A stretch of 37,665 bases of DNA from a virus. Taxonomy: Duplodnaviria; Caudoviricetes. This document shows positions 1 to 37,665 of this stretch, piece by piece; within the stretch, counting starts at the first letter, position 1, and each line of letters starts with the position of its first letter. The stretch is from the IMG/VR virus record IMGVR_UViG_3300020045_000748, positions 1 through 37,665 of that record; one strand, 5' to 3'. Below the pieces are notes generated by a model, which was not told where the DNA came from, did no database searches, and saw nothing but the letters and a program-made list of their open reading frames with translations. The translations under genes were made by a program, and so were the position numbers.

Positions 1-121
1 CGAAATATTAGTAAAGGCCGAGTTTTATATCAAAGAAGAATGAAAGAATACGTAAGCACCTTATGAGAAAATTAAAATATAACCTACCCCTAGACATCGC
101 AGTAGCGAAATCGGCGCACGC
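1..121. repeat. 121-bp direct terminal repeat, copy 1 (circular assembly overlap)
   Basis: 1-121 (cgaaatatta...ggcgcacgc) is identical to 37545-37665, and ORFs read through the junction. Confidence 0.97.
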
Positions 122-2576
122 GGTTAAGTGGAAGAACACGCACACCGATTGGCAAGCGATAGCCACCTCGTTAAGCGAGACGGAATACACCGACGAAACA
201 CAAAAGCAATACTTCGCAATGCCGAAGGACAAACAAGACACCATTAAGGACGTGGGCGGTTTTGTGGGCGGGAAGCTATCGGGCGGAACGTTCCGCAACC
301 GACGCACCCAGACTGACGAAGAGGTCAAAGCGCCCTACGGTTTACGCCGCAAAGGTCACGTCGAGTTTCGCCAGATGGTTGCGCTAGACGTGGACTTCGG
401 CGACCTCGACGTCTGGCTCGACTTCCGCGAGTTGGGTTTCGCTGGCTTGTTCTACACCACCCATAAGCACCAACCGACAGACCCGCGCTTGCGCGTAGTC
501 TTCCCGTTAGACCGACCAGTCACGCCAGACGAGTACGAAGCCATTAGCCGCACGGTTGCGTCGTGGCTTGGCATAGATTTATTTGACGACACCACCTACC
601 AGCCTACGCGTTTGATGTATTACCCGAGCACCAGCAAAGGCGCCGAGTATCTTTTCGACATCAACGACGCCCCGATAGCGTGCGCCGACGACATACTGCA
701 AACCCTCGACGACTGGGAAGACCCGACGACGTGGCCTATCTCTAGCCGCCAGCAGCAAATAAAACCTCACAAGGGTAGTACCGTCGAAGACCCCACCACT
801 AAGGCGGGTGTCATTGGCGCCTTTTGCCGCGCCTACAGTATCGAAGAGGCTATCGACGAGTTTTTGGCCGACGTCTACGAACCGACCGACGAGGCGACCC
901 GTTACACTTTTATCGGCGGGAGCACCAGCAAAGGTCTGGAAGTCTTCGACGGGCTTACCGCGTACAGCTACCACGCCACAGACCCCGCGGGTAGTAAACT
1001 GTCTAACGCCTTCGACTTGGTGCGTTTGCACAAGTTCGGCGACCTCGACTATAAACAAAACCCAGACACAGAAACGGCAAAGCTACCGAGTTTTAAGGCT
1101 ATGGCCGACTTTGCGGGTAATTTGTCGCCCGTTAAAAAAGAACTTTTAGCAGCCAGACGCGCGAAGCCAGACGATTACGACGCATTAGAAGAGCGCGCGG
1201 AACGTGTGGCGAACGCCGACGAGTGGGTCGAGGACTTAGAAATGGGCGGCAAGAACAAAGACCAAATTAAAAACACTATTTCGAACACCGTTTTAATACT
1301 TCATAACGACGAGTACTTGCGTGCGCGCTTTGCTTACAACGAGTTCGACGCCCGCGAAACGGCATACACCGCGCTACCTTGGGACAAAAAAGGGCTTAAG
1401 TACCCACGACCTTTGAGAGATACGGACGACGCGCAATTGCATTTGTATTTAGAACGCGCTTACGGTATCACTAACAAGGGCATAATCGCAGACGCGCTAA
1501 AGATAGCCACCTCGGAAAACAGTTACCACCCAGTTAAGAACTACCTCAACGCTTGCGAGTGGGACGGGACGCCTCGACTAGATACTTTATTTATTGATTT
1601 GTTCGGGGCCGAAGACAACGAGTACACGCGCGCAATAACTCGAAAAGCGTTCACGGCCGCCGTGGCCCGCATTTATAATGAGGGGTGCAAGTTCGACTAC
1701 GTGGTCGTTATACTTGGCGAGCAAGGAAAACAAAAGACTACGACTATAGAACTAATGGGCGGCGAGTGGTTCAGCAACTCGTTATTAACTATGGAAGGTG
1801 TTAAGGGCATGGAGAGTTTACAAGGCGCTTGGCTTATTGAATTGGGAGAACTGGCGGGCATGCGCAAGGCGCAAGTCGACGAGGTTAAACACTTTGTTAC
1901 TAAGCGGGTAGACATTTTTCGTGTAGCCTACGGCAAGAGAAACGAGCACTTCCCGAGGCGCTGCGTTTTCTTTGCGACGTCTAACGTTAACACCCCGCTA
2001 AGAGACACTACGGGAAATCGTCGTTTCTGGGTCGTTAATACGTTCGGCGGGAAGGGTGCGAAATTACCTAAAGATTACTTAACGCCCGTTATAGTGTCGC
2101 AGCTATGGGGTGAAGCTAAAGTAAGATTTAACGACGGCGAACTGTTATACCTTCCGCCAGCACTGGAAGAGGTCGCCGAAGAGGTACAGGCCGACCACCT
2201 AGAGCAAGACGAGCGCGGCGGTGTTATCGAAAACTATCTCGACAGACTGCTACCCGTTGACTGGCTTACGATGGACATACAAACACGCCGCATGTGGCTA
2301 GAGGACGAAACTAACGAGGGCGTTGTTAGGCGTCGCCAAGTGTCAGTACTTGAAATATGGGCGGAGTGTTTCGCGAATGAACCAAAGTATATTAAACGAA
2401 TGGACAGTTACGAAATCGGTAACATTATCCGAGCGATGAAAAACTGGCGCGCAGAAACTAAACCGACCAAAACGAAGTTTTACGGGTTGCAAAGGCATTT
2501 CGAAAACACCCTTGTACCCTTGGAAGAGGACAGAAAATACAAGGCGGCCAGACCGCGTAAGATGGGGCGCGAGTAG
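63..2576 (+). CDS. Primase-helicase, VirE/VapE family (N-terminal primase-like domain plus C-terminal P-loop helicase)
   Basis: 837 aa. N-terminal LDVD and YTTHKH..PRLRVVFPL primase-like motifs; C-terminal GEQGKQKTT Walker A, WLIELGEL Walker B and LRDTTGNRRFW typical of VirE proteins. Confidence 0.88.
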   Translation: MRKLKYNLPLDIAVAKSAHAVKWKNTHTDWQAIATSLSETEYTDETQKQYFAMPKDKQDTIKDVGGFVGGKLSGGTFRNRRTQTDEEVKAPYGLRRKGHVEFRQMVALDVDFGDLDVWLDFRELGFAGLFYTTHKHQPTDPRLRVVFPLDRPVTPDEYEAISRTVASWLGIDLFDDTTYQPTRLMYYPSTSKGAEYLFDINDAPIACADDILQTLDDWEDPTTWPISSRQQQIKPHKGSTVEDPTTKAGVIGAFCRAYSIEEAIDEFLADVYEPTDEATRYTFIGGSTSKGLEVFDGLTAYSYHATDPAGSKLSNAFDLVRLHKFGDLDYKQNPDTETAKLPSFKAMADFAGNLSPVKKELLAARRAKPDDYDALEERAERVANADEWVEDLEMGGKNKDQIKNTISNTVLILHNDEYLRARFAYNEFDARETAYTALPWDKKGLKYPRPLRDTDDAQLHLYLERAYGITNKGIIADALKIATSENSYHPVKNYLNACEWDGTPRLDTLFIDLFGAEDNEYTRAITRKAFTAAVARIYNEGCKFDYVVVILGEQGKQKTTTIELMGGEWFSNSLLTMEGVKGMESLQGAWLIELGELAGMRKAQVDEVKHFVTKRVDIFRVAYGKRNEHFPRRCVFFATSNVNTPLRDTTGNRRFWVVNTFGGKGAKLPKDYLTPVIVSQLWGEAKVRFNDGELLYLPPALEEVAEEVQADHLEQDERGGVIENYLDRLLPVDWLTMDIQTRRMWLEDETNEGVVRRRQVSVLEIWAECFANEPKYIKRMDSYEIGNIIRAMKNWRAETKPTKTKFYGLQRHFENTLVPLEEDRKYKAARPRKMGRE

Positions 2577-2618
2577 GACGGGCAAAAGGGTAAAGCGCTC
2601 AGCGCCAGCGTTTTAAAT

Positions 2619-2992
2619 GGTTACAAGGTTACAAGAAAAGTTACAAGAATCTGGCACTTTTTAAGTCTTGTAACCTATCTAATGCGCTGAAACCCACACC
2701 GTTACAATCCCAAGGTTACAAGGTTACAAGAATATTTATATAAGTATAGAATATAGTAATAATAGGTATTTATGTAACTACGGTACACACGTAATAAATG
2801 CATAATTACACGCCCGTAAAGGTTTTACCTTTATTCTTGTAACCTTGTAACCTTTTATATACGGGGCCCCGTGATAATCAGACCGTTAAGTAGGTTACAA
2901 GACTTAAAAAATGCCAGATTCTTGTAACTTTTCTTGTAACCTTTTTTTGTAACTGTCTGATAATCAGCGATAGCGTTTTTAAAGTTTGTAAC
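2619..2992. repeat. Putative replication origin: GTTACAAG iterons in nested inverted repeats around an AT-rich core
   Basis: 53-bp IR 2625-2677/2891-2943 (1 mismatch), 23-bp perfect IR 2712-2734/2832-2854, about 15 GTTAC(AAG) copies on both strands, AT-rich centre 2735-2831, directly after the primase-helicase. The repeats are certain; the origin role is inferred. Confidence 0.75.
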
Positions 2993-3015
2993 TATTAATT
3001 TATAACAGTCTGATA

Positions 3016-3288
3016 ATGAAAGAAATAACAGTCGAAAAGTATTTGATACGTAAGTCCGAGGCCGTCGGGTGGTGGTGCGTTAAGTTCCCGCCCATTTTCT
3101 TTGCGGGGTTCCCAGACAGGCTAATTTTAGGTGCGGGCGCTCTTATTATTTTTGTGGAGTTGAAAGCCCCCAGCAAAAAGCCGCGCAAGTTGCAGGCGTC
3201 AATACATAAAAAATTACGTGCTATGGGCTTCCGCGTTGAGGTTATAGATTCACACGAAGACGTAGACGCTTTAATACTAACGGCATGA
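3016..3288 (+). CDS. VRR-NUC domain nuclease (Holliday junction resolvase-like)
   Basis: 90 aa with GFPDRLIL...FVELKAP PD-(D/E)xK signature, upstream of an SNF2 helicase. Confidence 0.9.
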   Translation: MKEITVEKYLIRKSEAVGWWCVKFPPIFFAGFPDRLILGAGALIIFVELKAPSKKPRKLQASIHKKLRAMGFRVEVIDSHEDVDALILTA

Positions 3289-4766
3289 TTCAGAGAATTT
3301 ACGACCAGATAGCGGGTGTATGGTACGACACCGACCCGCACCAGATAGAAGCCTACGAACATTTAGAGGCGAACCCCCGCGCCGCTCTATTCCTTGGAAT
3401 GTCTTTAAGTAAAACATGCATAGCGTTAAGCTACTTACACGACATGCATTACCGCGAAGTCGCCTTTCTTAAAACGTTGGTAGTTGCTCCCGACAAAGTG
3501 GCGCGGGTTACTTGGCCCGACGAGTTGGCGAAGTGGCAGCACTTAAACGGTTTGCGAATGGTGGTAGTCTCGGGCACGGCAAAGCAACGATTAAAAGCGC
3601 TAGCCACACCCGCCGAGGTTTACGTCATTGGTATCGACTTGGTTAGCTGGTTGGTCGACTTGTACGTAAAACAGAAAGTGAGTAAAAACACGGGGCTAGC
3701 ATACGGCCCTTACCTCGGCGCTTTGCCCTTCGACAGTTTTATAGCCGACGAACTTAGCTTATTTAAGGGCCGCGGCTCTAACCGATTCGAAAAGCTAGAA
3801 CGCGCGCTAAGACAGTCTAATGTCGATTATCGTATTGGAATGACAGGGACACCATTATCAAACGGGTATGTTGATTTATGGGCGCAAATTAAACTATTGG
3901 ACGGCGGGCGAAGACTGGGCGAAACTTTCGGCGAGTATGAGCGCGAATATTTCACGACTCGAGGCAACGGCATGATTACCTACGAATGGCGCCCGAAGCC
4001 TAACGCGCAAAAGATAATCGCAAATAAGATAAAAGACATCGCGCTAAGTATGCAGACAAAGGATATATTAAAATTACCTAAGATGCACATAATCGACGAA
4101 GAGTTAACCTTCGCGCCGTTCGACCTTGAAATATACGAAGAGTTAGAACGCGAATACGTGCTGGAATTTTTCGACGACGAAGAGGTAACAGTCAAGACGC
4201 CCGCCGACCTATCGAATAAATTATTACAGATAAGCAGCGGGGCGGTTTATGCAGACCGAGAGGGCGAAGGTCCGAAAGTGTGGCACGAACTAAACACGCT
4301 TAAGCTGGACACTCTGGGCGAACTTTTGGCGGAATATCCAGACGAGACCTTTATCGTAGTGTATCAGTTCCGCCACGAAGTCGAACGCATTACCGCCAGA
4401 TTCCCGTATGCGCGCCAGCTTCGAAAAGGCAAAGGCACTGCCGAAGATGTACACGCGTGGAACCGTGGCGAAATCAGATTGCTAATAATACATCCAGCTG
4501 GGGCGGGGCACGGTTTAAACCTACAGTTCGGCGGGCGTCGTATGGTTTGGTTTTCGCCGACGTGGAACCTCGAACACTGGCTGCAAACGGTCGCTAGATT
4601 ATTAAGGCGCGGGGCGCTTAATGAGATATACATACACCGTCTTTTAGTTAAGGGCACCCGAGACGAGACAGTGCGCAAAAGAGTAAATTCAAAAGATAAT
4701 AACCAAACGTTTCTATTAAATGAAATAAAACAACTACGATTGAAATATGGCAAAGTTCGGAAATAA
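3285..4766 (+). CDS. SNF2-family (SF2) helicase
   Basis: 493 aa. Motif I LGMSLSKT (degenerate), DELS, MTGTP, DLWAQ, HPAGAGHGLNLQ, Q..ARL.R.G. Confidence 0.9.
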   Translation: MIQRIYDQIAGVWYDTDPHQIEAYEHLEANPRAALFLGMSLSKTCIALSYLHDMHYREVAFLKTLVVAPDKVARVTWPDELAKWQHLNGLRMVVVSGTAKQRLKALATPAEVYVIGIDLVSWLVDLYVKQKVSKNTGLAYGPYLGALPFDSFIADELSLFKGRGSNRFEKLERALRQSNVDYRIGMTGTPLSNGYVDLWAQIKLLDGGRRLGETFGEYEREYFTTRGNGMITYEWRPKPNAQKIIANKIKDIALSMQTKDILKLPKMHIIDEELTFAPFDLEIYEELEREYVLEFFDDEEVTVKTPADLSNKLLQISSGAVYADREGEGPKVWHELNTLKLDTLGELLAEYPDETFIVVYQFRHEVERITARFPYARQLRKGKGTAEDVHAWNRGEIRLLIIHPAGAGHGLNLQFGGRRMVWFSPTWNLEHWLQTVARLLRRGALNEIYIHRLLVKGTRDETVRKRVNSKDNNQTFLLNEIKQLRLKYGKVRK

Positions 4767-5684: not shown

Positions 5685-6486
5685 AGCAGTAAAAAAAGGC
5701 GCCATCGCTTTTAAAGACGCGAGCGCGCAATTAATTAAGAAGGTCGAGCAAGTTATCGACGAGTCAAAAAGACACATGTTTAGCGTGTCCAGAGTGTACG
5801 CGGCATATAACGAGACATTTCAATTGAATGAGACGCCCCAGACGTGCGGGTCTTGTCTGAAAAACCGCGCCGAGAAACTAGACGTTTGGTATAGACAAGG
5901 ACAAAAAGGGGTTAAGCACACCGCGGGCAAAGTGATAGACTTGGCGCCGAGAGTAACGGTAAACGCAGCGGGCGAACTTTCGGGCGAACCAAACCACGCC
6001 ATTACGTACATAGTCGAAGAGGGCGCCGAGCGTTTCGCCGTTGAGAACGACGGGACTACTCTGGCCGTGGTTAACTTCACACCCGAAGCGGACGGGGCAC
6101 AGTACGGCATCGCCACGGAAGCGGACGGGGTTACGCCAGCACCAGCATACACGTACATTCAAAACGGTACGGCGTACATGGTTAACGGTACCGAAGGGCG
6201 CTACACAGTAGTAACGGGCGAACCTATCGCAGAGTTTACACCAGCACCAGCACCAGCACCAGCACCAGCACCAGCACCAGCGACGGCGTGGGAAGCAATC
6301 GACGCGGGCGTTATTGAATTAGTTCTAAACGACGAAAACGCGCAACGCGTACACTTTACGACCGAAGACGGTGTAAAAGGGATAGTTAAATATGCGGACG
6401 GCTCGAACGTAAAAGCGGGCAAACACGCACTTTTAGACGGGACCACTCTAGCCGTGGCGGTTGGGTCTCGCGCAACTATTAAATAA
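5677..6486 (+). CDS. Hypothetical protein: N-terminal CxxC domain, (PA)7 linker, scaffold-like beta repeats
   Basis: ATG 5677 (MSKAVKK) overlaps the upstream stop; 269 aa; TCGSCL; C-terminus resembles part of the protease/scaffold protein. Confidence 0.75.
   Translation: MSKAVKKGAIAFKDASAQLIKKVEQVIDESKRHMFSVSRVYAAYNETFQLNETPQTCGSCLKNRAEKLDVWYRQGQKGVKHTAGKVIDLAPRVTVNAAGELSGEPNHAITYIVEEGAERFAVENDGTTLAVVNFTPEADGAQYGIATEADGVTPAPAYTYIQNGTAYMVNGTEGRYTVVTGEPIAEFTPAPAPAPAPAPAPATAWEAIDAGVIELVLNDENAQRVHFTTEDGVKGIVKYADGSNVKAGKHALLDGTTLAVAVGSRATIK
6241..6282 (+). repeat. Hexamer tandem repeat (CCAGCA)6 CCAGCG encoding (Pro-Ala)7
   Basis: Directly visible in the sequence. Confidence 0.97.
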
Positions 6487-8678: not shown

Positions 8679-9221
8679 ATGAAAGCAATAACACTGAAAA
8701 CCGCCGCCCTTATTGGGCTAATTATTTTTATCTTAGGATTTGCCGCGGGCTTCGCAGTATCTAAGCACATGTATAAATGCGAAGAGGCGCCCGTCGTTAG
8801 CGCAGTACGTGAGATTAAAACCGTACGCGATACCGTAAAGGCGAAAGTACCGCCAGCCGTTAAAGAAACGGTAAAACGAAAAGAGACCGCAAGGCTTAAG
8901 ATAAAGCCCTCGGTCGGTACAAAGACCCCGACTATAGTTAATGATTCATTAGCGGGCACCGCTGAGGTCGAAATACCCATTACAACAAAGATTTATGAAA
9001 CGCCAAACTACCGCGCCGTCGTTAGTGGGTTTCGTCCGAGTCTGGACAGTATGGAAGTTTACCGAGACACGCGGACCATAACCGAGACAGTCACGAAGCT
9101 ACAGCCCGCACGGCGTAAATGGTTAGCGTTGACGGTAGGCCCCTCGATAGGGTACAACCTCAACGGCGAGATAGTGCCCTCGGCGTCCGTCACGCTCGGC
9201 ATTATATTATTAAGCAAGTAA
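8679..9221 (+). CDS. Putative lysis accessory (Rz/spanin-like) protein
   Basis: N-terminal TM helix, DTV/ETV-rich extended region, C-terminal amphipathic beta-hairpin; follows the endolysin. Confidence 0.55.
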   Translation: MKAITLKTAALIGLIIFILGFAAGFAVSKHMYKCEEAPVVSAVREIKTVRDTVKAKVPPAVKETVKRKETARLKIKPSVGTKTPTIVNDSLAGTAEVEIPITTKIYETPNYRAVVSGFRPSLDSMEVYRDTRTITETVTKLQPARRKWLALTVGPSIGYNLNGEIVPSASVTLGIILLSK

Positions 9222-9260: not shown

Positions 9261-9261
9261 A

Positions 9262-9654
9262 TTATTTACGCGCGTTTTGCTTTATCTCTCGGGCCAAAGA
9301 GACCAGAGCCCGCAACGCGACGGGGTTGTGCGAAACGGTACCCGCGTTAATAACCTTTATACGTTCGGGCTCTTTGTAAACCCTAACTTTACGGACAAAC
9401 GCCGCGCGGTCGGCGGCCATCTTTTCGCGTATATGGTGCGGCACTATCTCGGGCCTAAAGGTTGCGCTTATACTTTCGCCAAAACCCCAGTCGACACCGA
9501 GTACCTCTTCGTTAGTGCTCTCGGCGAAAAGTGGGCGACTTACAGGGCGGGCGCTAGTTACCAATTTAATAGCGGTCTCGGCCAACTCTACCGCTTTGCG
9601 CGCTAGTATCGCGCTGTCTAGTTCGTCGAGGCTATTTATTTTTATCGGTTTCAT
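9262..9654 (-). CDS. Hypothetical protein
   Basis: 130 aa; last gene of the reverse-strand cluster, ending at the terminator. Confidence 0.7.
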   Translation of the reverse strand: MKPIKINSLDELDSAILARKAVELAETAIKLVTSARPVSRPLFAESTNEEVLGVDWGFGESISATFRPEIVPHHIREKMAADRAAFVRKVRVYKEPERIKVINAGTVSHNPVALRALVSLAREIKQNARK

Positions 9655-10321
9655 ACTTGTATTTTAATGTTAGATACTCTTTGATTTGTTCGGGCGTTGC
9701 GGGTCTCACGCGCTCGGCTATGCACGAACGATGACTAAAATACCCCGTTTTAAAATACTGGCTATTCATAAACTCGACCGCGTGAACCATACCTTCGTCG
9801 TCTTCGCTTTGTTCTTCGAAAAGCAAGGCATCGCCCATACGTGGGTATTGAGAAACTTTCGCAGCAGTACACACAACGACGTCGTTTATGCGCATTTCGT
9901 TGTGTTTGCCGTCGATACCGTAAACGAAAGTTATGTCGTCCACTTTTGTAAGGATGCGCACGCCCATAATTTTATGGACTTGTTCGCCGATGTCTTCGTG
10001 GTCTTCGTCGGTTAGCCCGTAGTTAAACGCTTCATGTATTAAAGCCAGACCAAGCGCGGCCATACAAGGCCCTTTTTTAACTATGTACATTTCGACGTCG
10101 TGGCGCGCGATGTCGGCCCAGTTAAGAACTTGCTGCAAGTTTGCCGCGGTTTCTATTTTTACGGCAGTGCCCCACGTTTGAGGCTCTGAAAGTTCGACTT
10201 GGATTTTGTTAGGTGGTATAAAATCCACGCTACCGTCGCGAGGCGCGGAGTCTAAGCGCTGCATGTTAGCAACTCGCAAGTTTTGAACTCTGATAAAGTC
10301 GGTAGGTTTTAGCTTTTCCAT
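9632..10321 (-). CDS. Hypothetical protein
   Basis: 229 aa, coupled to the upstream gene by TAATG; ends in an RPATPEQI motif common in small phage proteins. Confidence 0.8.
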   Translation of the reverse strand: MEKLKPTDFIRVQNLRVANMQRLDSAPRDGSVDFIPPNKIQVELSEPQTWGTAVKIETAANLQQVLNWADIARHDVEMYIVKKGPCMAALGLALIHEAFNYGLTDEDHEDIGEQVHKIMGVRILTKVDDITFVYGIDGKHNEMRINDVVVCTAAKVSQYPRMGDALLFEEQSEDDEGMVHAVEFMNSQYFKTGYFSHRSCIAERVRPATPEQIKEYLTLKYKYETDKNK

Positions 10322-10641
10322 TAGTTAGATATTACATAATTAATCATTCGATTCTGAAGGCAGTACACCGCTATAACTTTGCGGTTAGTAATCTCGCGGT
10401 ATATTTCAACGCCCGCCACGGCTACCGCGTGCGCCTCTGGGCCGTTAAGGCAACCATCAAAGACCACCACGTCGGCAGCTTCCACGCGCAAAACGTCTGC
10501 GACTTCGTGGGGTGTGCCTACTGACACTATAAAATGCGCGATTCGTTCGGGGTTAACGCCCGTAACTTTTAATAAGTCTGTTACAAATTCAGTTTTGCCA
10601 GCGCCTTGCGGGGCTACGATGGTAATGTCTAAGTTTTTCAT
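10321..10641 (-). CDS. Small P-loop NTPase-like protein
   Basis: ATG 10641 (MKNLDIT), 106 aa; ITIVAPQGAGKT Walker A and VVVFD Walker B. Confidence 0.75.
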   Translation of the reverse strand: MKNLDITIVAPQGAGKTEFVTDLLKVTGVNPERIAHFIVSVGTPHEVADVLRVEAADVVVFDGCLNGPEAHAVAVAGVEIYREITNRKVIAVYCLQNRMINYVISN

Positions 10642-10695
10642 GTTTGATTGTTTGAATGAACCACAAATGTAATAAATAGTTTTTAATAATACAAA
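10642..10695 (-). promoter_or_regulatory. Bacteroidota-type promoter with conserved leader (copy C)
   Basis: Minus strand TTTG-N20-TACATTTG followed by TGGTTCATTCAAACAATCAAAC-ATG. Confidence 0.75.
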
Positions 10696-10703
10696 TGCGA
10701 AAG

Positions 10704-10970
10704 TTAATAATTTTTCACGCCGCAAGTGGCGCACTCGTCCAGTCCGTCGCTAGAATATATAAAAGGGTGTTTGCACGGGTAATACAATCGAATGTATCTT
10801 TTAAATATTTTAGAGGCGACTTCATAGTCGGCCAAGCGCTGCGCGGTGTCCGCCAGTTGCACGAAAAGCCGAGCGCCTAACATCTTAAGGAGTTCGGCGC
10901 GGTGCTCGTCGTCGGCGGCGTCGTATTGAAACACCGCGAGCCTAAGGATTTTTTTAGCGTCTTTAGTCAT
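10704..10970 (-). CDS. Hypothetical protein, possible C-terminal Zn-binding motif
   Basis: 88 aa; CKH...CATC; overlaps the upstream gene. Confidence 0.65.
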   Translation of the reverse strand: MTKDAKKILRLAVFQYDAADDEHRAELLKMLGARLFVQLADTAQRLADYEVASKIFKRYIRLYYPCKHPFIYSSDGLDECATCGVKNY

Positions 10971-11223
10971 TGTCTTTATAAGGTAGGCGCACGCCTTCGC
11001 GTACGGGGTTAATTACGGGCGGGCCGCTTACGGTTACTTTATCTTTGCCGACCCAGTGCAAAGAGTTCGGCGCGTCGCCGTTCGCGTGGTATTCCATATA
11101 GCGAACGCGGTAACGGTTCCCTTTCTCTTCTATAATCTCGACGCGTATTTTGTGCGTCTTTAGAACGCGGCGCCCTAAGTCGTCCCACACTCTAAACTGG
11201 TACCTATAAACGCCCCGTTCCAT
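10963..11223 (-). CDS. Hypothetical protein
   Basis: 86 aa, TAATG-coupled. Confidence 0.7.
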   Translation of the reverse strand: MERGVYRYQFRVWDDLGRRVLKTHKIRVEIIEEKGNRYRVRYMEYHANGDAPNSLHWVGKDKVTVSGPPVINPVREGVRLPYKDND

Positions 11224-11465
11224 TAGATAACGTCTTTAGCGTCTCGGTCCTCTTGCGTTTCGTGCTCTCGATTAAAGCGCGTGTCGCTTATGGCTTGTTT
11301 TAAAAAAGTATCGCCCACGGGGTCGGCTGGGTCGAATAAACGGCGCCCGCTGTCCGTGGTTTTGTACGCCATACATATACGCCCGCTAGGGCTAATAAAT
11401 TCCACTTCGTAGCGGTCGCCTTCCAGTGTGAAGGTATCGCCCGCGTTTAAATCAGTTAGGACCAT
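11223..11465 (-). CDS. Hypothetical protein
   Basis: 80 aa within a tightly packed operon. Confidence 0.7.
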   Translation of the reverse strand: MVLTDLNAGDTFTLEGDRYEVEFISPSGRICMAYKTTDSGRRLFDPADPVGDTFLKQAISDTRFNREHETQEDRDAKDVI

Positions 11466-11469
11466 AATT

Positions 11470-11979: not shown

Positions 11980-12197
11980 TCGTTCCAAGATTTTATTTTA
12001 ATATATGCGCCTTTCTTTACTATGCCGCTAACCCAGCCCTTAGATGTTAAAGAAGTCATTTCGTTTTCTTTAAAGTCTATAAGCACCGCGCCGTCTGGTT
12101 CCATAATGCCGATAACATGGGCGCCCAAGTACGTACCGTTAGACCATGCGGCCGCGTTGTTACTATCCAGTTTAATTTTAATTACTATCTTTTCCAT
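11976..12197 (-). CDS. Hypothetical protein, first gene after early promoter B
   Basis: 73 aa; ATG lies at the end of the conserved leader repeat. Confidence 0.7.
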   Translation of the reverse strand: MEKIVIKIKLDSNNAAAWSNGTYLGAHVIGIMEPDGAVLIDFKENEMTSLTSKGWVSGIVKKGAYIKIKSWNE

Positions 12198-12256: not shown

Positions 12257-12266
12257 ATAATAGGTT
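12238..12266 (-). terminator. Possible terminator of the portal-adaptor-holin transcript
   Basis: aacctatta-N6-taataggtt 9-bp IR followed by a T-run on the minus strand; the stem is AT-rich. Confidence 0.45.
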
Positions 12267-12273
12267 AAAATAA

Positions 12274-26094: not shown

Positions 26095-27378
26095 ATGGCA
26101 AACATGTATAACATTAACGGCCTAACCTACACAGCAAAAGAAAACCCCGAGTGGTTTACACGCGCAATGTTTGGCGGGCGTTTAGTTGCGGGCGGATATA
26201 TTCGCGTCCTAACAGGCATTAAAGGCGACGAACTTTTGAGCCAGATAGACTTAGAAAATAAGATTTTACAAATTGACGGTAAAGACTGCGCTTGGTCGCC
26301 TAACCAGATAATCAAATTATCGGAGAAAAAAGCCAGCGTAACAACGTACAAAATTAATCTAGAAGAGTGTATTGACACCCTAGAGAATAAACGTACACTT
26401 TACCAATTAAGCGAGGGCGCAACTAACGACAGTCTGCCCGCAGACCTAGAGGCTGCAACTTTGGCGCTTATTGCTATCGGTCTATCGAATGAGATAGAAG
26501 AAATGGTAATCGGCGGAAACTCTGCAACGGACGCCAACCAGTTCGACGGTATGGTGGAAACGCTTTTAAAATCTAGCGAAGCGGCTAAAATCGTCGGGCC
26601 CGTTTTAACACAGGCGAACGTTTTAGAGACGGTTCAATCGGGTTACGATAAAGTACTCGAAGACGTTTTACAAAGCGAAGACGCGGGCACGCTTTACGGC
26701 TTCGTATCTTATGGAACGCGTCGTAAATTACGCGGGGCTTTGTCTGGATTAAACAGCCAAGTAATTGCGCCGAACTGGTCGCTAGACGACTCGGACAAAC
26801 GCAACCCTAAAATTTTCTATTTAGGTATGGAAATGGTACCCGTTAAAGGTATCGGAGCGAACGACATTATTATCATAGATGGGCTTAACGCTTACTTGTT
26901 AACTGATTTGTTGAGCGACTTAGACGGTATCGAATTGGGTAACTTCCCGAAACCGAACGACGATAAGGTATTTATCAAAGGGCGTTTGCGTTTGGGCTTC
27001 GTAATTCCGTTCGAAGACGAAGCGGTAATCGTTTCGCCAAGAGTAACGACAGCGCAAGACAGCGGGGCGGGTAGCGACGATTTACGTCTAATTCCTAACT
27101 CGTTAGTGTTTAGTGCGGCGGGTGAAACTAAAACGGCTACGGTAATTACCAAAGACGCGGCGGCGACTATCTCGTTAAGTGCTAACCCAGTCGGGTACAC
27201 AATAACGGCGGGCGCTACGGTTGCGGGTGTAACTACCTTAACCATCGTTTCCACGGCTAACACTGGCGCATTTAACCCTAAAGTCGGCCAAATCGTTGTA
27301 ACTATCGACGACACCGACCGAAGCGGAGTAATTACGTTAGACACGCACAGCGAAGAGGTAACTAACATAGTACCCTAA
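26095..27378 (+). CDS. Major capsid protein with C-terminal Ig/BACON-like domain
   Basis: 427 aa after the protease; K.N.E.C...LE and FDG....L motifs; C-terminal LIPNSLVFSAAGETKT...NTG...G.IVVT. Confidence 0.82.
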   Translation: MANMYNINGLTYTAKENPEWFTRAMFGGRLVAGGYIRVLTGIKGDELLSQIDLENKILQIDGKDCAWSPNQIIKLSEKKASVTTYKINLEECIDTLENKRTLYQLSEGATNDSLPADLEAATLALIAIGLSNEIEEMVIGGNSATDANQFDGMVETLLKSSEAAKIVGPVLTQANVLETVQSGYDKVLEDVLQSEDAGTLYGFVSYGTRRKLRGALSGLNSQVIAPNWSLDDSDKRNPKIFYLGMEMVPVKGIGANDIIIIDGLNAYLLTDLLSDLDGIELGNFPKPNDDKVFIKGRLRLGFVIPFEDEAVIVSPRVTTAQDSGAGSDDLRLIPNSLVFSAAGETKTATVITKDAAATISLSANPVGYTITAGATVAGVTTLTIVSTANTGAFNPKVGQIVVTIDDTDRSGVITLDTHSEEVTNIVP

Positions 27379-29191: not shown

Positions 29192-31429
29192 ATGGCTATT
29201 GTAAAAATAACAGAAAACATGACGGGGGCCGCTGTGGCGGACCTTCTTTTTAACAACGACACCGAACTTGAGGGCCAGCTGAGTAAAATAAACCCTTGGG
29301 TCGCGAAGGTTTACGCCTCTGGCTCACAAGTTAACTATCTCGGTCGCGATTGGGTGGCGAACGCCGCCACGGTCGCGGGAGACATACCCGCGACATCGAC
29401 CAAATGGATAGAGCGATTGAGTTTTTACAATCCAGAAACGGACCTAAACGACACTATTATCAGCAAGAGCCCCGAGGTCGTTTTCGGGCTTCGCGATGTA
29501 ACTATATTAGCGGGAGTTTTAGAGATTAGAAAGGCTAAATATTTTAAAAGTATTACTTTCGCGGTAGACACTAATTTTAATTTAGGTGTATCTAGTGCCG
29601 CGCGGGCCTTGGTTTACGACTACAGCACGTCTTCGCTCTTGGTTGTTGTCTCAACTGCGATAGACAGAGCCACCCAAGCGGTTATCGTATATGATAACGG
29701 CACTAAGATAGTGGACGGTGTTTTATGGCGGTTTTTTAAAATAAACGCGGCGGACGTTAGTACTGCTTACAACAAATCGACAATAGAAAGAAACCGAACA
29801 ATTTTAAGCGACTCTATAAAATCAAACCGCGAGGTACTTGTCGCGTTCTCGACGCTGCCTAAAACGCCAGATACGACGGTAAATTTTAATTCGTCGGCTC
29901 TTGTAGCCTCTACAAAAAACTACACAATAGACACGGTGCTAACCCCTCTATACCCCATTATATCAATACCCGCGATAATAGGCGGTGCTAATGACGGGTA
30001 CGTGTTTGTGGACGTTAACGGGAAGTATTTAACAGGGCGCACACTAAGGGACACCCCGACAGACGTTTTAATAACGGGGTCATTTATAGACATAATCATT
30101 CCAATAAACGCCCACCGTATTATTTTCGCCGTTTTAAATTCAGTAGCGCCAGAGTTTATTTATTATTCTAAATACGCGGTAAAATCAGATAAAATAACTG
30201 AGGCGGACAAGTCCGTATTAATGGGTAAAGATGTATTTTTAATAGAGGGCCAAGACTTGCCGATATACAAACGGGGGCTAACCAATAACATAAAAGTAAA
30301 GCGGTTGTGCGTAATATCTAAGGACACTACGGCTAAAAAATCCTACGCGAATATAGACTACGCACTAGCACCGCAGTACCATTACTTTGACGAAAAGCTA
30401 ATTCTAAACACAAACACGATTAAATCGCCTACTATCGACGTAGTTTGTATTTTTGACAAAGACCCCATTTTATTAACGGAAAACGGTATCGATTATTTAT
30501 ACGGAATTACCGCCGTAAATATTAATAAAGTGGCGGCCTCGGCGCTAGTCGGGTTATCAAAAGATATTTTAATGATTGGCGGCAGCACAACTAATAACGG
30601 GCTGGCAACCTATACGCGAAAATATATAGCTAACTTCGGCGTAACGGGTAACTATAAAGGCGGTATGAATGACGACCTAGGTACCGCGTGCGAAGCTACG
30701 GACGGCTGGGGCTCTGATACCTTGTTCGGAAAAAGAACGTTAGTAGGCAGCACCGTAATATACCCGCACTTAATGGCTGCCCCTCCCGCGGGAACCCCTA
30801 ACAGATTTATGTTTCTAGCCACGGGCGCAGATAAAATAAATAAACCTTCTTTTTGCTACACTTTTACGGCGGGGGGTGTCGCCCAAGAAACTACATACGC
30901 GGATTATACGGGAGAAGACAAACTCACGCGAGATTTTTATATTTTCAGTTTTTCGCAGTATTGTACCGAAAGAGTTATTCCTAACTTAGACGTAATGACT
31001 GTGCAATTAGGAATAAATGACATAAATAATAATACCTACGGGCTGACAGATTTACAAAAATTTATACCTGAGTTATTAATACAAGCTACCGCACTATTCC
31101 CAGCCATACAGATAGGAGTAATGCCTTCGGCAGCCTTTGGCGCGGGTACTAACGGAGATAATTTTTTAAAACGATATATCCCTTATATGATTAATCTTAA
31201 CTTAATGGTCGCGAACCTCGGTAAAACTAACGTTAAGGTTTTGTCGACGCAAATACACAGCGACCGCATAAACCAATTCGAGTGGCTGAGTGTGGTTAAC
31301 CTTTATTCAAACGGGAACTTAACCCAAAAAATAAGAACACAGGGCGACGCGTTCCACGGCAATAATAATTTTTATTTAGAAGTTGGCCGCGCCGTTGGGA
31401 TGTTCATCGCGTGGGCTTCCGCTAATTAA
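29192..31429 (+). CDS. Tail spike/receptor-binding protein with CBM5/12-like module and SGNH hydrolase domain
   Basis: W....Y..G..V.Y.G..W.A module; SGNH blocks IGGSTT, GWG, LGIND, DAFH. Confidence 0.7.
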   Translation: MAIVKITENMTGAAVADLLFNNDTELEGQLSKINPWVAKVYASGSQVNYLGRDWVANAATVAGDIPATSTKWIERLSFYNPETDLNDTIISKSPEVVFGLRDVTILAGVLEIRKAKYFKSITFAVDTNFNLGVSSAARALVYDYSTSSLLVVVSTAIDRATQAVIVYDNGTKIVDGVLWRFFKINAADVSTAYNKSTIERNRTILSDSIKSNREVLVAFSTLPKTPDTTVNFNSSALVASTKNYTIDTVLTPLYPIISIPAIIGGANDGYVFVDVNGKYLTGRTLRDTPTDVLITGSFIDIIIPINAHRIIFAVLNSVAPEFIYYSKYAVKSDKITEADKSVLMGKDVFLIEGQDLPIYKRGLTNNIKVKRLCVISKDTTAKKSYANIDYALAPQYHYFDEKLILNTNTIKSPTIDVVCIFDKDPILLTENGIDYLYGITAVNINKVAASALVGLSKDILMIGGSTTNNGLATYTRKYIANFGVTGNYKGGMNDDLGTACEATDGWGSDTLFGKRTLVGSTVIYPHLMAAPPAGTPNRFMFLATGADKINKPSFCYTFTAGGVAQETTYADYTGEDKLTRDFYIFSFSQYCTERVIPNLDVMTVQLGINDINNNTYGLTDLQKFIPELLIQATALFPAIQIGVMPSAAFGAGTNGDNFLKRYIPYMINLNLMVANLGKTNVKVLSTQIHSDRINQFEWLSVVNLYSNGNLTQKIRTQGDAFHGNNNFYLEVGRAVGMFIAWASAN

Positions 31430-31782: not shown

Positions 31783-32307
31783 ATGGAAATCAACGTAAAA
31801 TTAACAATTGAAGCGGGAGCAAGTTTTAAAGCATTAGTAGACCAGTTAACACCTAAAGCAGTAGCGGCCCCAGCAGCTAAAGCGCCCGTAGTTCTTACGC
31901 CTAAAATGGCTGTTGTAGCAGAAACCGCCGAACAAGAAGCACCGAAGCCAGCCAGAGCAACGCCAGCACCTAAAGCGGCAGTAGCGGCCCCAGCACCTAA
32001 AGCAGTAGCGGCCCCAGCACCTAAAGCAGCAGTAGCGCCAAAACCAGCGGCACCGAAGCCAGCACCTAAAGCCGTGGCCGTTAATTTCGAAGACCTAGAG
32101 CCAGCGGAACAACTGGAAGCGCTTAAGGCACACGCTACTAAACACACCAAAAAAGGCAAGACCGCAGACATTAAAGCGTTAGTAGCTAACTATGGCGCGG
32201 AACGTGTGAGCGAATTGGACCCAGACTATTACATCGAGTTTAACGACGTATTGACGCGATACAGCGACGGCGAGAGTGTAGAGGACATCTTCCCTAACGC
32301 TGACTAA
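31783..32307 (+). CDS. Pro/Ala/Lys-repeat protein with helical C-terminal domain
   Basis: APAPKA repeats; C-terminal IKALV..YGA.RVSEL...Y..F domain, typically found upstream of DUF2800 genes. Confidence 0.8.
   Translation: MEINVKLTIEAGASFKALVDQLTPKAVAAPAAKAPVVLTPKMAVVAETAEQEAPKPARATPAPKAAVAAPAPKAVAAPAPKAAVAPKPAAPKPAPKAVAVNFEDLEPAEQLEALKAHATKHTKKGKTADIKALVANYGAERVSELDPDYYIEFNDVLTRYSDGESVEDIFPNAD
31851..32073 (+). repeat. Imperfect 24-27-bp tandem repeats (cctaaagcagtagcggccccagca)
   Basis: Directly visible; encode PKAVAAPA units. Confidence 0.85.
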
Positions 32308-32310: not shown

Positions 32311-33579
32311 GTGCCAGACAGACACGCAATACTAGGCCCTTCGGCTGCGGACAAGTGGGTAGCTTGTCCGCCGTCCGCTCGGTTTGAAGAGCAAATCGAA
32401 AACGAAGACAGCCCCTTCGCCCGAGAGGGCACACTAGCCCACGACTTAGCGGCGCTAATTCTAGCCACTAGGGCGGGAGTTTATGAAGGGTGTAATGATT
32501 CATTTATTGACGAGTTCCGAAACATTGAGGCCGACGTTATAGACTTCTATGAAGACGTCCATATCGGAGCGATAGAATTTACCGCGATGCTAGAGCACGC
32601 GGAGAACTGGGCCGCCTTTGTAAAAGACCAGCTTACGCGAGACAGCCGTTTAAGCATCGCGAACGAATACGAGTTAGCTATCGAGTGGGTCGGCGCGCCA
32701 CCTTCGGAAGTAATGGCGGGTTTTGAGTTATCCATCGAACGCGAATACGAGATTACAAAGTATGTGCCACTAGGGTACGGTACCAGTGACGCCGTTGTTA
32801 AAACGCCCCGTGTGTTATACGTGAACGATTACAAGTTCGGCGCTGGTAAGCGCGTCAGTGCTTACAAAAATAAACAAGGTCTTTTATATGCGCTCGGCGC
32901 ACTTAAAGCCGCGCTAAAGCAAGACCCGAACTACACGCCCGATTTGGTTATCGTTAGTATATTTCAGCCAAGAGTTAGCGGGGGCGAGACTAGTTTCGAA
33001 ATTACCGTCGCAGAGTTATTGCAATGGGCCGACGAAGTTATAAAGCCCGCAGCAAATTTGGCGATAGCGGGACAGGGTGACTTTAAAGTCGGGCCTCACT
33101 GCCAGTTTTGCAAGGCGAAAACCGTCTGCAAAAAGTACTTCGATACGTTCGCCCAGATTAAAAAGATACACGACAAGCGAACTATGACGGCGGCCGATTT
33201 GGAAACCGTTTTAAACTTCGGTAGTGTTGTTTCTAGCTGGGTTAAAAAAGTAGAAGAGGACACCGCGCGACGCATGCAGTCGGGCCACGTGGTCAAAGGC
33301 TTTAAACTTGTAGCGGGCGGCAGCCGCCGAACCTTTACCAGCGAAGACGACGTAATAGACGCGGCCTTCGGTACTGAAATCGAAGTCGACAAACTCTTTA
33401 GGACTGAGTTAGTTTCTTTAACAGACATCGAAAAAATCGTCGGCAAAAAGAACTTTGAAAAGATTTTCGGGCACGTTATTTTTGAAAAAGAATTTCAGCC
33501 GAAAGTAGTACCCGAAGACCACCCCGCGCCCGCGATAGGTCGCTCGGCACATGATGACTTTGAAGACGATGTAATTTAA
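32311..33579 (+). CDS. Cas4-like PD-(D/E)xK exonuclease (DUF2800)
   Basis: HA.L.PS....W..CP.S, EGT.AH, GTSD, DYKFG, Q..LYALGA, QPR, HCQFC.....C Fe-S ligands. Confidence 0.88.
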   Translation: MPDRHAILGPSAADKWVACPPSARFEEQIENEDSPFAREGTLAHDLAALILATRAGVYEGCNDSFIDEFRNIEADVIDFYEDVHIGAIEFTAMLEHAENWAAFVKDQLTRDSRLSIANEYELAIEWVGAPPSEVMAGFELSIEREYEITKYVPLGYGTSDAVVKTPRVLYVNDYKFGAGKRVSAYKNKQGLLYALGALKAALKQDPNYTPDLVIVSIFQPRVSGGETSFEITVAELLQWADEVIKPAANLAIAGQGDFKVGPHCQFCKAKTVCKKYFDTFAQIKKIHDKRTMTAADLETVLNFGSVVSSWVKKVEEDTARRMQSGHVVKGFKLVAGGSRRTFTSEDDVIDAAFGTEIEVDKLFRTELVSLTDIEKIVGKKNFEKIFGHVIFEKEFQPKVVPEDHPAPAIGRSAHDDFEDDVI

Positions 33580-34927: not shown

Positions 34928-36939
34928 AGTTACATCTCGATTTGGAGACCTATTGCGAACTGCCGTTAACAGGTCAAAAGTCCGTCGGGTCGTATCGATA
35001 CGCGCAGCATGAAAGTTTCGAGATTATACTACTGGCATACCGTTGGGACGATGGCGAAGAGTACGTCGTCGACATCGCGCAAGGCGAAGAGGTGCCCTTC
35101 GAAGTGTGGGACGCGTTGAGCGACCCTAACGTTATGAAGTACGCGCATAACGCGCCGTTTGAAATGGCGTGTTTGCAATTTGGCTGGGGTGTTTCGATAG
35201 ACCCGTCGCAGTGGCGGTGCACTATGATAATGGCGGCCTATTTGGGTCTGCCTTTGGCCTTGGATAAAGTTAGTAAAGTGTTACGATTGACTGAACAAAA
35301 GGACGCCAGAGGCTCGGCGTTAATTAAATACTTTTGCCAGCCCGTAGCGAAGCCCCGAAAGAAAGACGACTTTCGAACTCGGAACCTACCGCACCACGCG
35401 CCCGAAATGTGGGAAGAGTTTATAAACTACAACGGCCAAGACGTCCGCGTCGAGTGCGCTATCGACGACTATACCCAGAGGTACCCACCCGTCCCGTTAA
35501 TCGAGTGGGAATACTGGGCGATGGACCAGCGTATCAATATGGCTGGCGTTACCATCGACACCGACTTCGTGCGCGCTGCCATTAAGAGTAATAACGCATT
35601 CCAGAAACGCACGCACGAAGAAATCGTAAAACTGACGGGCGTTAGTAATCCAAACAGTACGGCGATGTTAAAAACGTGGCTAGCGTCGCAAGGCTTCGAG
35701 GTACCGAGTTTGAGTAAAGACTTTTTTCTGGACGTCGATTTGTCCGAGTTCCCGCCGAACGTGGCCCGCTTGTTCGAATTGCGCAAGCTGGCGTCTAAGG
35801 CGTCAATAAGTAAGTATAGTAAAATGTTAATGTACTTATGTGATAACGGGCGAAACCATGGGCTTTTTCAATTCTACGGGGCCAACCGAACGGGCCGAGA
35901 AGCGGGCCGAGGGGTGCAACCGCAAAACCTAAAAAAGACCTTTAGCAACGCCGAAAAGATAGAGGCCATCGCCAAGCGATTAAAAGCAAGCGAGGACGTT
36001 GTACGGCAGTTAGTAGGCGACGCACTGGAAACGGCAAAAGAGGCGGTGCGCTTAGGCCTTGCGGACGTGTTATATAGTGACGTTCCCGACATCATTAGTA
36101 AACTGGTGCGCACGGCTATAGTGCCCTCGTTGGGTAATATGTTCGCCGTGTGTGACTTCTCGGCCATCGAGGCCCGCGTCTTGGCGTGGCTGGCTGGCGA
36201 AGATTGGGTCTTGGAAGTATTTAAAAGTCACGGTAAAATCTACGAAGCCACGGCCTCGAATATGTTTAACGTTCCTTTCGAGAGCGTGACGAAGGGGTCG
36301 GACATGCGCGCTAAAGGGAAGGTCGCGACGCTGGCCCTCGGGTACCAAGGCGCCACGGGGGCCATGCTAACTATGGGCGCTCTTCGTGAAGGTATTCTCG
36401 AAAGTGAGATACCAGCCTTAGTAAAGGCGTGGCGTCGCGCTAACCCCGAGATAGTTAAATTCTGGCGCAAAGTTGAGGGCGCCGTTAAGCACGTACTAGA
36501 AAAAAAGTGTAAATATATATTACGCCTAAAGTACGCCTCGTTAACGTTCAGCTACGAACGCGGCTACCTCTTTATCGAACTGCCGAGCGGTCGGCGTCTG
36601 TCTTATTATGGCGCTAACTTACGCAGCAACAAGATTTGTTATTATGGGCTAGACCAAAAGACGGGCGGCTGGGTGCTTCAAGATAGTTACGGGGGTAAGC
36701 TGGTGGAGAACATTACCCAAGCGGTGGCCCGAGATTGTCTTTTCGATTCCATGTACCGCATGAGGCATTTAGATTTACGCATGCACGTACACGACGAAAT
36801 CGTCGCCGAGTCCTTGGCGGTCTTGGCCCCCTCGGTCCTTAAAGAAATGGAACAAATAATGTTGATTAGTCCCGTATGGGCCAACGACTTACCTCTAAGG
36901 GGTGACGGGTTCGTAAGTAATTTCTATAAAAAAGATTAG
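34921..36939 (+). CDS. polA: Family A DNA polymerase with 3'-5' exonuclease
   Basis: ATG 34921 (MVKLHLDLETY); exonuclease DLET and AHNAPFE; motif A DFSAIEAR, motif B KVATLALGY, motif C HVHDE. Confidence 0.95.
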   Translation: MVKLHLDLETYCELPLTGQKSVGSYRYAQHESFEIILLAYRWDDGEEYVVDIAQGEEVPFEVWDALSDPNVMKYAHNAPFEMACLQFGWGVSIDPSQWRCTMIMAAYLGLPLALDKVSKVLRLTEQKDARGSALIKYFCQPVAKPRKKDDFRTRNLPHHAPEMWEEFINYNGQDVRVECAIDDYTQRYPPVPLIEWEYWAMDQRINMAGVTIDTDFVRAAIKSNNAFQKRTHEEIVKLTGVSNPNSTAMLKTWLASQGFEVPSLSKDFFLDVDLSEFPPNVARLFELRKLASKASISKYSKMLMYLCDNGRNHGLFQFYGANRTGREAGRGVQPQNLKKTFSNAEKIEAIAKRLKASEDVVRQLVGDALETAKEAVRLGLADVLYSDVPDIISKLVRTAIVPSLGNMFAVCDFSAIEARVLAWLAGEDWVLEVFKSHGKIYEATASNMFNVPFESVTKGSDMRAKGKVATLALGYQGATGAMLTMGALREGILESEIPALVKAWRRANPEIVKFWRKVEGAVKHVLEKKCKYILRLKYASLTFSYERGYLFIELPSGRRLSYYGANLRSNKICYYGLDQKTGGWVLQDSYGGKLVENITQAVARDCLFDSMYRMRHLDLRMHVHDEIVAESLAVLAPSVLKEMEQIMLISPVWANDLPLRGDGFVSNFYKKD

Positions 36940-36988: not shown

Positions 36989-36997
36989 CGTAAACCT

Positions 36998-37030
36998 AAA
37001 CACGGGCCCGCTGGGCCTTGTTTTGTTTGT
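36998..37030 (+). terminator. Hairpin with T-rich tail
   Basis: aaaca(c)gggccc-gct-gggccttgttt followed by tgtttg. Confidence 0.6.
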
Positions 37031-37075
37031 ATCGATTATTGTCTTTATATTATTAACTTAACACCTAAAAAGCGA

Positions 37076-37282
37076 ATGAAAATTAAAGCTAAATTTAAAG
37101 GTGCTGACGGTTCCCTCGGGTATCGTAACGGCGAAAACTATTCTCTGAATTTCGGCACTCGATTAACGCAGTGCCTAACCCGCGAAGCGATAGTAGTATC
37201 GCCCGAAGTCCACACAAAAAGCCAGACCCCTATCGTTTACGAAAGTCTTAAATCGTTCTTAAACAACTGGCAAATATTATGA
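37076..37282 (+). CDS. Hypothetical protein
   Basis: ATG 37076 (MKIKAKF), 68 aa; ATGA-coupled to the next gene. Confidence 0.7.
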   Translation: MKIKAKFKGADGSLGYRNGENYSLNFGTRLTQCLTREAIVVSPEVHTKSQTPIVYESLKSFLNNWQIL

Positions 37283-37587
37283 AAAAGAAACTATCTAAAC
37301 TCTTAAGGGCGTGGGCCGATAAATTGTACACCGAGCCCCGACCGTTTCGCGTACCAATTCACGAAACAAAACTGACACGTTACGCGATAGACTACGCCGT
37401 GAGCGATTACGAATATAATGCGCGATTACGCCGATTCAACGGACACCCCGCAAAAGACCGCTTAGACGACATTTTAAAACAAGAAGCCATAGTAAGGAAC
37501 GCAATAGGTTTATCAAACGCGGTTAACGTAACGCATGAGAGGGGCGAAATATTAGTAAAGGCCGAGTTTTATATCAAAGAAGAATGA
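37279..37587 (+). CDS. Hypothetical protein spanning the circular junction
   Basis: 102 aa; stop is equivalent to positions 41-43, 19 nt before the primase ATG. Confidence 0.72.
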   Translation: MKKKLSKLLRAWADKLYTEPRPFRVPIHETKLTRYAIDYAVSDYEYNARLRRFNGHPAKDRLDDILKQEAIVRNAIGLSNAVNVTHERGEILVKAEFYIKEE

Positions 37588-37665
37588 AAGAATACGTAAG
37601 CACCTTATGAGAAAATTAAAATATAACCTACCCCTAGACATCGCAGTAGCGAAATCGGCGCACGC
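37545..37665. repeat. 121-bp direct terminal repeat, copy 2
   Basis: Identical to 1-121. Confidence 0.97.

Follow-up and report, generated by a model that had tools for sequence, protein, structure and literature searches.

The DNA analyzed here, IMG/VR record IMGVR_UViG_3300020045_000748 (37,665 bases; hereafter the window), covers a virus from end to end: it carries direct terminal repeats and represents a complete phage genome. Over its full length (1-37665) it contains no CCNGG, no CCGG and no GATC, and its proteins contain no proline-glycine (Pro-Gly) dipeptide. PHROGs and Pfam matches include a VapE-like primase/helicase, a VRR-NUC nuclease, a helicase, both terminase subunits, an M15 endolysin, a portal, a protease-like protein, a DUF2800 exonuclease, a single-stranded DNA-binding protein (SSB) and a family A DNA polymerase. 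Judging by its place after the protease-like gene, a further gene likely encodes the major capsid protein. The terminase, portal, endolysin and polymerase matches, together with the direct terminal repeats, identify a double-stranded DNA (dsDNA) virus of prokaryotes. Neither an integrase nor a methyltransferase was found with PHROGs and Pfam among the 42 coding sequences (CDSs) of the window, which we chose out of 147 open reading frames (ORFs), and a search of the window for tRNA genes returned none.

Each of the four CCNGG words (CCAGG, CCTGG, CCCGG and CCGGG) occurs zero times in the 37,665 bases, compared with about 65 CCNGG expected under a gapped Markov model. Pro-Gly is absent from the 12,164 amino acids of the 42 CDSs, where 32.4 were expected, because a Pro-Gly cannot be encoded without a CCNGG. 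Automatic ORF picking led to an identical count (0 Pro-Gly in 12,183 amino acids), within-protein shuffles yielded 32.5 ± 5.4 Pro-Gly with a minimum of 16 (n = 2000), and the reverse dipeptide, Gly-Pro, occurs 30 times in the 42 CDSs. These counts bear out an earlier reading of the DNA (hereafter the original prediction), which held that CCNGG avoidance was strong and that no protein contained Pro-Gly; its rough estimate of 100 expected sites agrees with a codon-order shuffle (99.8). The CCNGG deficit acts at the DNA level, beyond protein and codon use, for two reasons: (i) when synonymous codons were resampled with the Pro-Gly-free proteins left unchanged, 59.9 ± 7.7 CCNGG arose, versus 0 observed; and (ii) the other two reading frames should hold 25 and 41 of about 99 expected CCNGG, roughly two thirds, and also hold none.

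The closest relatives of the window are two genomes, G001 and G002, whose polymerases are about 80% identical to its own and whose likely capsid proteins are 83-88% identical. CCNGG occurs once in G001 (84.5 expected) and not at all in G002 (74.3 expected), neither genome encodes a Pro-Gly (about 33 expected in each), and Pro-Gly is the most depleted of the 400 dipeptides in all three genomes. A nine-gene tree of 14 genomes places the three together on one long, fully supported branch. Pro-Gly loss is specific to this lineage. The original prediction had named equally Pro-Gly-free related phages from unrelated hosts as one outcome that would speak against it, and we found instead that 13 more distant genomes, our outgroup, hold 18-44 Pro-Gly and 32-348 CCNGG. 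Cultured phages also retain the dipeptide, with 23 in Bacteroides phage BC679P5 and 16 in Parabacteroides phage PM708P4. No Pro-Gly-free locus was found among 78 further loci, and among another 86 there was one, which proved to be G001 again. A possible counter-example, L067 (87% identical over 62 capsid residues, 1 Pro-Gly), was rejected, as its protease is 54% identical to that of the window and 70% to that of G012.

We defined a conserved site as an alignment column with Pro-Gly in at least 60% of outgroup orthologues, which gave 16 columns; near-duplicate rows (G011, L056, L057, L058 and L066) were dropped from the count, and L018, L055, L067 and L069 were excluded from the orthologue sets. 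Conserved Pro-Gly was kept at 0 of 16 columns in the window, 0 of 12 in G001 and 0 of 16 in G002. Control pairs in the window were kept about 70% of the time (102/167 for Pro-X and 243/329 for X-Gly; Fisher p 1e-8), and the outgroup genomes, each left out in turn, kept 117 of 142 conserved Pro-Gly in total. Avoidance therefore overrode conserved Pro-Gly in proteins. Sites that retain Pro carry Asn, Asp, Ser or His in place of Gly, and those that retain Gly carry Ala, Glu, Gln, Ser or Val in place of Pro; such replacements would keep the protein turn at some cost. Nine of the 16 replacements lie more than one base change away from Pro-Gly and the three genomes differ from one another at several sites, which suggests that the loss is old, was never reversed and is still policed.

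The replaced sites are distributed along the genome. On the plus strand, residue 540 of the VapE-like primase/helicase is Glu-Gly (1680-1685; Pro-Gly in 9/9 outgroup orthologues), VRR-NUC residues 40 and 52 are Ala-Gly (3133-3138) and Pro-Ser (CCCAGC, 3169-3174), each Pro-Gly in 4/6 outgroup orthologues, and helicase residue 239 is Pro-Asn (3999-4004; Pro-Gly in 10/11), with Pro-Asp and Pro-His in the two relatives. A protein of unknown function has Val-Gly at residue 272 (6460-6465; 3/4) and a DUF6808 protein has Pro-Ser at residue 155 (9141-9146; 5/7). On the minus strand, a DUF6712 protein has Ser-Val at residue 154, in a gappy stretch (12852-12857; 8/12), and the portal has lost three sites: residue 174, now Glu-Gly (14219-14224; Pro-Gly in 100/120 homologues), residue 194, now Ala-Gly (14159-14164; 102/120 homologues and 12/12 outgroup genomes), and residue 202, now Pro-Asn (14135-14140; 60/120 homologues). 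The remaining sites are again on the plus strand: Pro-Ser at residue 30 (18241-18246) and Ser-Gly at residue 494 (19633-19638) of a 1141-aa probable tail protein, each Pro-Gly in 4/5; Glu-Gly at residue 107 of the likely major capsid protein (26413-26418; 12/14); Val-Gly at residue 260 (33088-33093; 9/10) and Glu-Phe at residue 394 (33490-33495; 7/10) of the DUF2800 exonuclease; and Gln-Gly at residue 54 of DNA polymerase A, beside a short deletion (35080-35085; 9/9 outgroup genomes and 81/111 database homologues). Two of these sites had been picked out beforehand as replacements of Pro-Gly, ELKAPS in VRR-NUC (residue 52) and YSAG in the portal (residue 194), and both were correctly chosen, as was GDIPA in the tail spike described below. 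A fourth, KPFG in the endolysin, is ambiguous: KPG precedes the same strand in two of three outgroup homologues, but MAFFT placed KPFG in an insertion.

A tail-spike-like gene (an SGNH/GDSL look-alike; 29192-31429, plus strand) was also stripped of Pro-Gly. It is 78% identical in amino acids and 71% in nucleotides to a gene of another phage, G268 (L250, 9479-12163), whereas the remaining proteins common to the two phages are only 18-44% identical and their GC contents are 34% (G268) and 48% (window). G268 carries a serine recombinase, and its capsid-region protein is 35% identical to that of Nonlabens phage P12024. Its 22 kb contain 1 CCWGG (CCAGG or CCTGG), 75 CCGG and 34 CCSGG (CCCGG or CCGGG), and its 8 Pro-Gly are all written with CCC/CCG. 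In the aligned window spike both Pro-Gly of the G268 copy are gone, along with 4/4 CCGG, 2/2 GATC, 3 GGAGG and 6 GANTC. Residue 66 has become Pro-Ala (29387-29392, plus strand; GDIPA, GDVPG in 3/3 homologues) and residue 533 Ala-Gly (30788-30793, plus strand; PAG, PPG in G268). The GC content at third codon positions of the spike (0.46) is the second-lowest among the window's longer genes, and the spike holds the window's sole plus-strand CCTG (31067) and its sole CCTCC (30782); these features fit a later import that is still being cleaned, the probable direction of transfer.

Relatives under half of the ban show a different solution. G015 has no CCWGG and spells all 32 of its Pro-Gly with CCC/CCG, L070 has no CCSGG and spells all 11 with CCA/CCT, and G005 uses CCA/CCT in 26 of 29. 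Among 163 further loci, 21 are free of CCWGG, yet these hold 215 Pro-Gly versus 255 expected (with many closely related loci among them). A ban on one half is thus met silently by a switch of proline codon, and Pro-Gly vanishes only when both halves are banned. A Dcm/EcoRII-type system (CCWGG) acting alone was rejected on these grounds, since the window has 0 CCSGG and 0 Pro-Gly while G015 and the 21 CCWGG-free loci keep the dipeptide.

The window lacks more than CCNGG. CCGG is absent (about 145 expected) and GATC is absent in all contexts (about 50 expected), neither of which figured in the original prediction. CCNGG, CCGG and GATC all show restriction-site elimination, defined as an observed/expected ratio below 0.1 with more than 15 expected, and all three, as well as CCWGG, are listed as orthodox Type II enzyme sites. 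CCGG outside CCSGG occurs 0 times in the window and once each in G001 and G002, compared with 47-166 times in outgroup genomes without CCGG avoidance. At least two pressures are required, because a lone CCNGG enzyme would spare CCGG outside CCSGG. As CCSGG itself contains CCGG, a pair of enzymes cutting CCGG and CCWGG fits as well as a pair cutting CCGG and CCNGG.

We consider it highly probable that two host Type II enzymes, one cutting CCGG and the other CCNGG or CCWGG, selected against their sites and that Pro-Gly was lost as a result. A host enzyme cutting CCGG would select against that word, including CCSGG, and the second enzyme would select against the CCNGG words that remain. With all four CCNGG words gone no Pro-Gly codon pair would be possible, and the dipeptide would be lost from every protein, with substitutes taking over at conserved positions and the probably imported spike gene stripped likewise. 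The original prediction, in which a host CCNGG-recognizing system overrides protein constraint, stands in part: the selection is DNA-level, lineage-specific and left 0 of 16 conserved Pro-Gly, but a lone CCNGG system fails on the absence of CCGG outside CCSGG.

Because the best cultured matches of the terminase (about 37-38%) are Bacteroides and Parabacteroides phages and the nearest named prophage relatives, whose likely capsid proteins are 66-67% identical, come from Bacteroides stercorirosoris and a Rikenellaceae metagenome-assembled genome, the host of the window phage probably belongs to Bacteroidota. The likely capsid protein had zero matches among 50,697 cultured phage records. We infer that restriction enzymes are the agent, in a Bacteroidota host with many restriction-modification (R-M) systems. 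By analogy, the choice between an HpaII-like plus a ScrFI-like enzyme, documented in Flavobacterium psychrophilum, and an HpaII-like plus an EcoRII-like enzyme, predicted in Bacteroides, would be an even call; both pairs exist in Bacteroidota and sequence alone does not separate them. In a REBASE-derived table of PMC6286503, of which 30 of 66 Bacteroides rows were covered, both Bacteroides barnesiae and B. fragilis have entries for CCGG, CCWGG and GATC enzymes. Across 251 Bacteroidota genomes we detected the EcoRII-C family in 12, the HpaII family in 6 and the two together in none; the LlaMI family was detected in 0 of the 251, in a search without a positive control. We note that the HpaII family also has matches in B. 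thetaiotaomicron.

Several points weigh against the two-enzyme explanation. Sites at or near zero include 8 of 28 listed for Flavobacterium and 5 of 17 listed for Bacteroides, and outgroup genomes score alike; picking a host genus from restriction-motif lists was rejected, as the two genera are not separated. CGCG and GCSGC, both F. psychrophilum sites, are abundant in the phage (in window genes, CGCG 344 versus 261 expected); of two more common sites of this species, CGCAG is near expectation (82 versus 79) and CTGAAG almost gone (1 versus 14). An HpaII-family endonuclease gene lies in B. stercorirosoris (G016; L158, 1486-2613) between two housekeeping-looking ORFs, with no methyltransferase neighbor and no C5 methyltransferase found in the assembly. 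This host carries a CCGG-poor prophage (L069), but the gene may be an orphan without activity, and we accordingly downgraded the match between prophage and gene as support. G268 has the spike in common with the window phage, and possibly the host as well, yet retains its CCGG and CCSGG sites. About 30% of the conserved Pro-Gly losses would happen anyway, as the Pro-X and X-Gly controls indicate, and the clade sits on a long branch. CTWGG, a deamination product of the avoided word, is in excess in G001 (219 versus 138) and G002 (178 versus 139). Finally, the absence of an integrase does not establish a virulent lifestyle for the window phage, as proviral relatives miss it too: the tyrosine integrase family PF00589 is missing from 15 of 16 genomes, including three of four proviruses, and we rejected it as a lifestyle sorter.

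An improbable alternative to the two enzymes is a non-classical defense, namely a DISARM class 2-type system, which is keyed to CCWGG, a modification-dependent Type IV or Type IIM nuclease, or a Type III or Type IIG enzyme acting on CAGG/CCTG words, among which CCWGG falls. CAGG/CCTG is low in every context in the window (30 versus about 131) and in G001 (19 copies), several words survive on one strand only, and PMC6286503 gives a Type IV specificity, SCNGS, that overlaps CCNGG. However, G002 retains 106 CAGG/CCTG and still has 0 CCWGG, so that the CCWGG loss is specific and shared, and Rusinov et al. (PMC6286503) describe modification-dependent sites as only weakly avoided.

Mutational decay, in which host 5-methylcytosine at CCWGG and CCGG is deaminated to T with no selection, we regard as very unlikely. 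The CTWGG excess in the two relatives would fit it, as would TCGG and CTGG above the null in the window, but CTWGG (115 versus 114) and TCWGG (93 versus 89) are close to expectation in the window, and the transversion neighbors CGGG, ACGG and GCGG are raised to the same degree as the transition products. Decay would yield a deficit, not 1 site versus about 220 expected over three genomes, and would not erase a Pro-Gly that 100 of 120 homologues share at the same position. A single CCNGG-specific enzyme of the ScrFI/SsoII type as sole driver, the simplest version of the original prediction, is less likely still: all four CCNGG words are absent and CCNGG enzymes appear in 61 species rows (60 of them covered), F. 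psychrophilum included, but CCGG outside CCSGG is also gone from all but one position in each of two genomes, so that such an enzyme is contradicted as the sole cause and survives only as one of two. Least credible of all is selection on protein or translation (ribosome stalling at Pro-Gly or cleavage by a host protease) with the DNA word following, which would explain the rank of Pro-Gly among dipeptides but not the empty out-of-frame positions or the equal absence of CCGG and GATC, which force no dipeptide.

Other words are also missing. A scan for near-absent words returned 75 in the window, 165 in G001 and 114 in G002, in lists where many longer words shadow shorter ones or arise by chance. 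At or near zero in the window are GAGCT, CCTCC, GGGGA, AAGCTT, GAATTC, CACGAG, CTGAAG, CTGCAG and most CAGG contexts; of these, GAATTC, AAGCTT, CTGAAG and CTGCAG, like GATC, are sites of known restriction enzymes, which favors restriction as the agent. CTGAAG, a listed Type IIG site, has 0-1 copies versus 14-28 expected in G000-G003, G006, G013 and G015. ACAGG occurs 27 times on the plus strand of the window and 0 times on the minus strand, whichever way genes are transcribed, and CGGAG, GGAGA, GATTC, CAGAT, ATGAG, GGAGT and TACAG are likewise confined to one strand. For these eight words, which were picked post hoc, the ratio of forbidden to allowed orientation is 1:13 in the reverse-transcribed block (9262-14743) and 6:150 elsewhere, a pattern that resembles Type III head-to-head avoidance.

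We note further observations at the margins of the main subject. Two proline-rich features are free of Pro-Gly, a Lys/Ala/Pro-rich repeat protein (31783-32307) and a Pro-Ala repeat tract (6250-6290). Pro-Met is also short, with 0 versus 8.4 expected in window CDSs, 5 versus 25 in the three genomes and 0 in G008, and no single banned word accounts for it. Among relatives, G009 has 29 CCGG left, 1 of them outside CCSGG, and CTAG, GATC and CATG are almost gone from it. A mirror case involves 57 of 78 loci (L073-L150) that are poor in GGNCC and hold 45 Gly-Pro versus 575 expected from composition (many are close kin); the remaining 21 hold 213 versus 370. G014 (4 Gly-Pro versus 25), G007 and L163 also belong to the mirror-case group. 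The portal, DUF6712 and holin-like genes (12274-14743) are opposite in strand to the terminase and other structural genes, and the same inverted portal block is present in L165, L167 and L169.

The trait may reach beyond the three genomes, a claim that rests on two proteins, the polymerase and the portal. The nine closest polymerase homologues (76-100% identical) are Pro-Gly-free, as are 10 of 111 others; in the polymerase tree, one clade of 22 tips (support 1.0) contains all the Pro-Gly-free tips, 21 in number. Two tips of that clade duplicate G001 and G002, and its sole exception, P0013, has 4 Pro-Gly. Among portal homologues, 16 of 120 are Pro-Gly-free, and 15 of the 18 free tips in the portal tree fall in one 16-tip clade (support 0.96), with three strays. 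Three polymerase-portal pairs, whose longest contigs are alike in length (37,678, 38,446 and 25,770 bases), hint that these proteins come from the same genomes. Viral scans with P0198, P0075 and P0090 for a wider Pro-Gly-free group returned only outgroup or already known genomes. We give an even chance to the reading that stacked restriction systems hold an entire deep lineage (polymerases 54-64% identical to that of the window) under a long-standing "forbidden dipeptide", with imported genes edited at the protein level on arrival. If so, the lack of a dipeptide, Pro-Gly in the case of CCNGG and Gly-Pro in that of GGNCC, could serve as a protein-only marker of the host restriction repertoire and as a way to gauge directly what restriction evasion costs in fitness.

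Most accounts of restriction-site avoidance treat it as silent, by means of synonymous codons. In the window lineage that route is no longer available: both halves of CCNGG are banned, and the portal, likely capsid protein, helicase, primase and polymerase have changed at conserved residues. The half-avoiders and the stripped spike are clean controls with which the cost of evasion is testable site by site. In such phages, DNA words leave their mark on protein conservation and on codon models, and a cheap proteome-level signal of host defenses is suggested.

The one-strand words recall phage T7, in which EcoP15I sites lie in one orientation; ACAGG in the window is likewise on one strand only (27 versus 0). 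Unlike in T7, they are a side feature and not the cause of Pro-Gly loss, and no enzyme is assigned to them. Rusinov et al. 2018 (PMC6286503) did not see strand-asymmetric avoidance of Type III sites systematically and state that Type IIG sites are not avoided; the window shows one-strand words and also lacks the Type IIG word CTGAAG, neither of which was systematic there.

That survey reports that roughly one in ten viral genomes has all but eliminated some restriction site. The window resembles its phages in that palindromic Type II sites are pushed to near zero in a dsDNA phage, and differs in that elimination is total and a dipeptide is removed. In a sample of 150 of the 1,019 CCNGG rows of its supplement 5, no row had a count of 0, and the lowest with at least 15 expected (n = 129) was 9 of 83; a text search of the supplement for zero-count CCNGG rows gave no match, and zero-count pairs with fewer than 15 expected were set aside by its authors. 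Judging by these 150 rows, total CCNGG loss looks rare among cultured phages. The terms "amino acid", "synonymous" and "protein sequence" are not used in the survey, and our literature searches on protein-level effects of site avoidance and on CCNGG avoidance, with incomplete coverage of subscription journals, returned no paper on dipeptide loss.

In a review (PMC8410138), removal of motifs from coding DNA is treated as synonymous, with the amino-acid sequence intact. The relatives that switch proline codons conform to this picture of anti-restriction selection within genes, whereas the window has no synonymous way out and conserved residues are altered. The nearest parallel in enzymes is F. 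psychrophilum, where, according to PMC11837570, no R-M systems are commoner than the HpaII-like FpsJI (CCGG) and the ScrFI-like FpsJVI (CCNGG), which stop DNA transfer until the DNA is methylated or the systems are deleted. The window clade misses the sites of both, CCGG and all CCNGG, plus GATC. Since other sites of F. psychrophilum, CGCG and GCSGC, are plentiful in the window phage, this species is unlikely to be its host and the link is by analogy only. The mechanism, anti-restriction site elimination, is already known, and the window is an extreme, protein-level variant of it.

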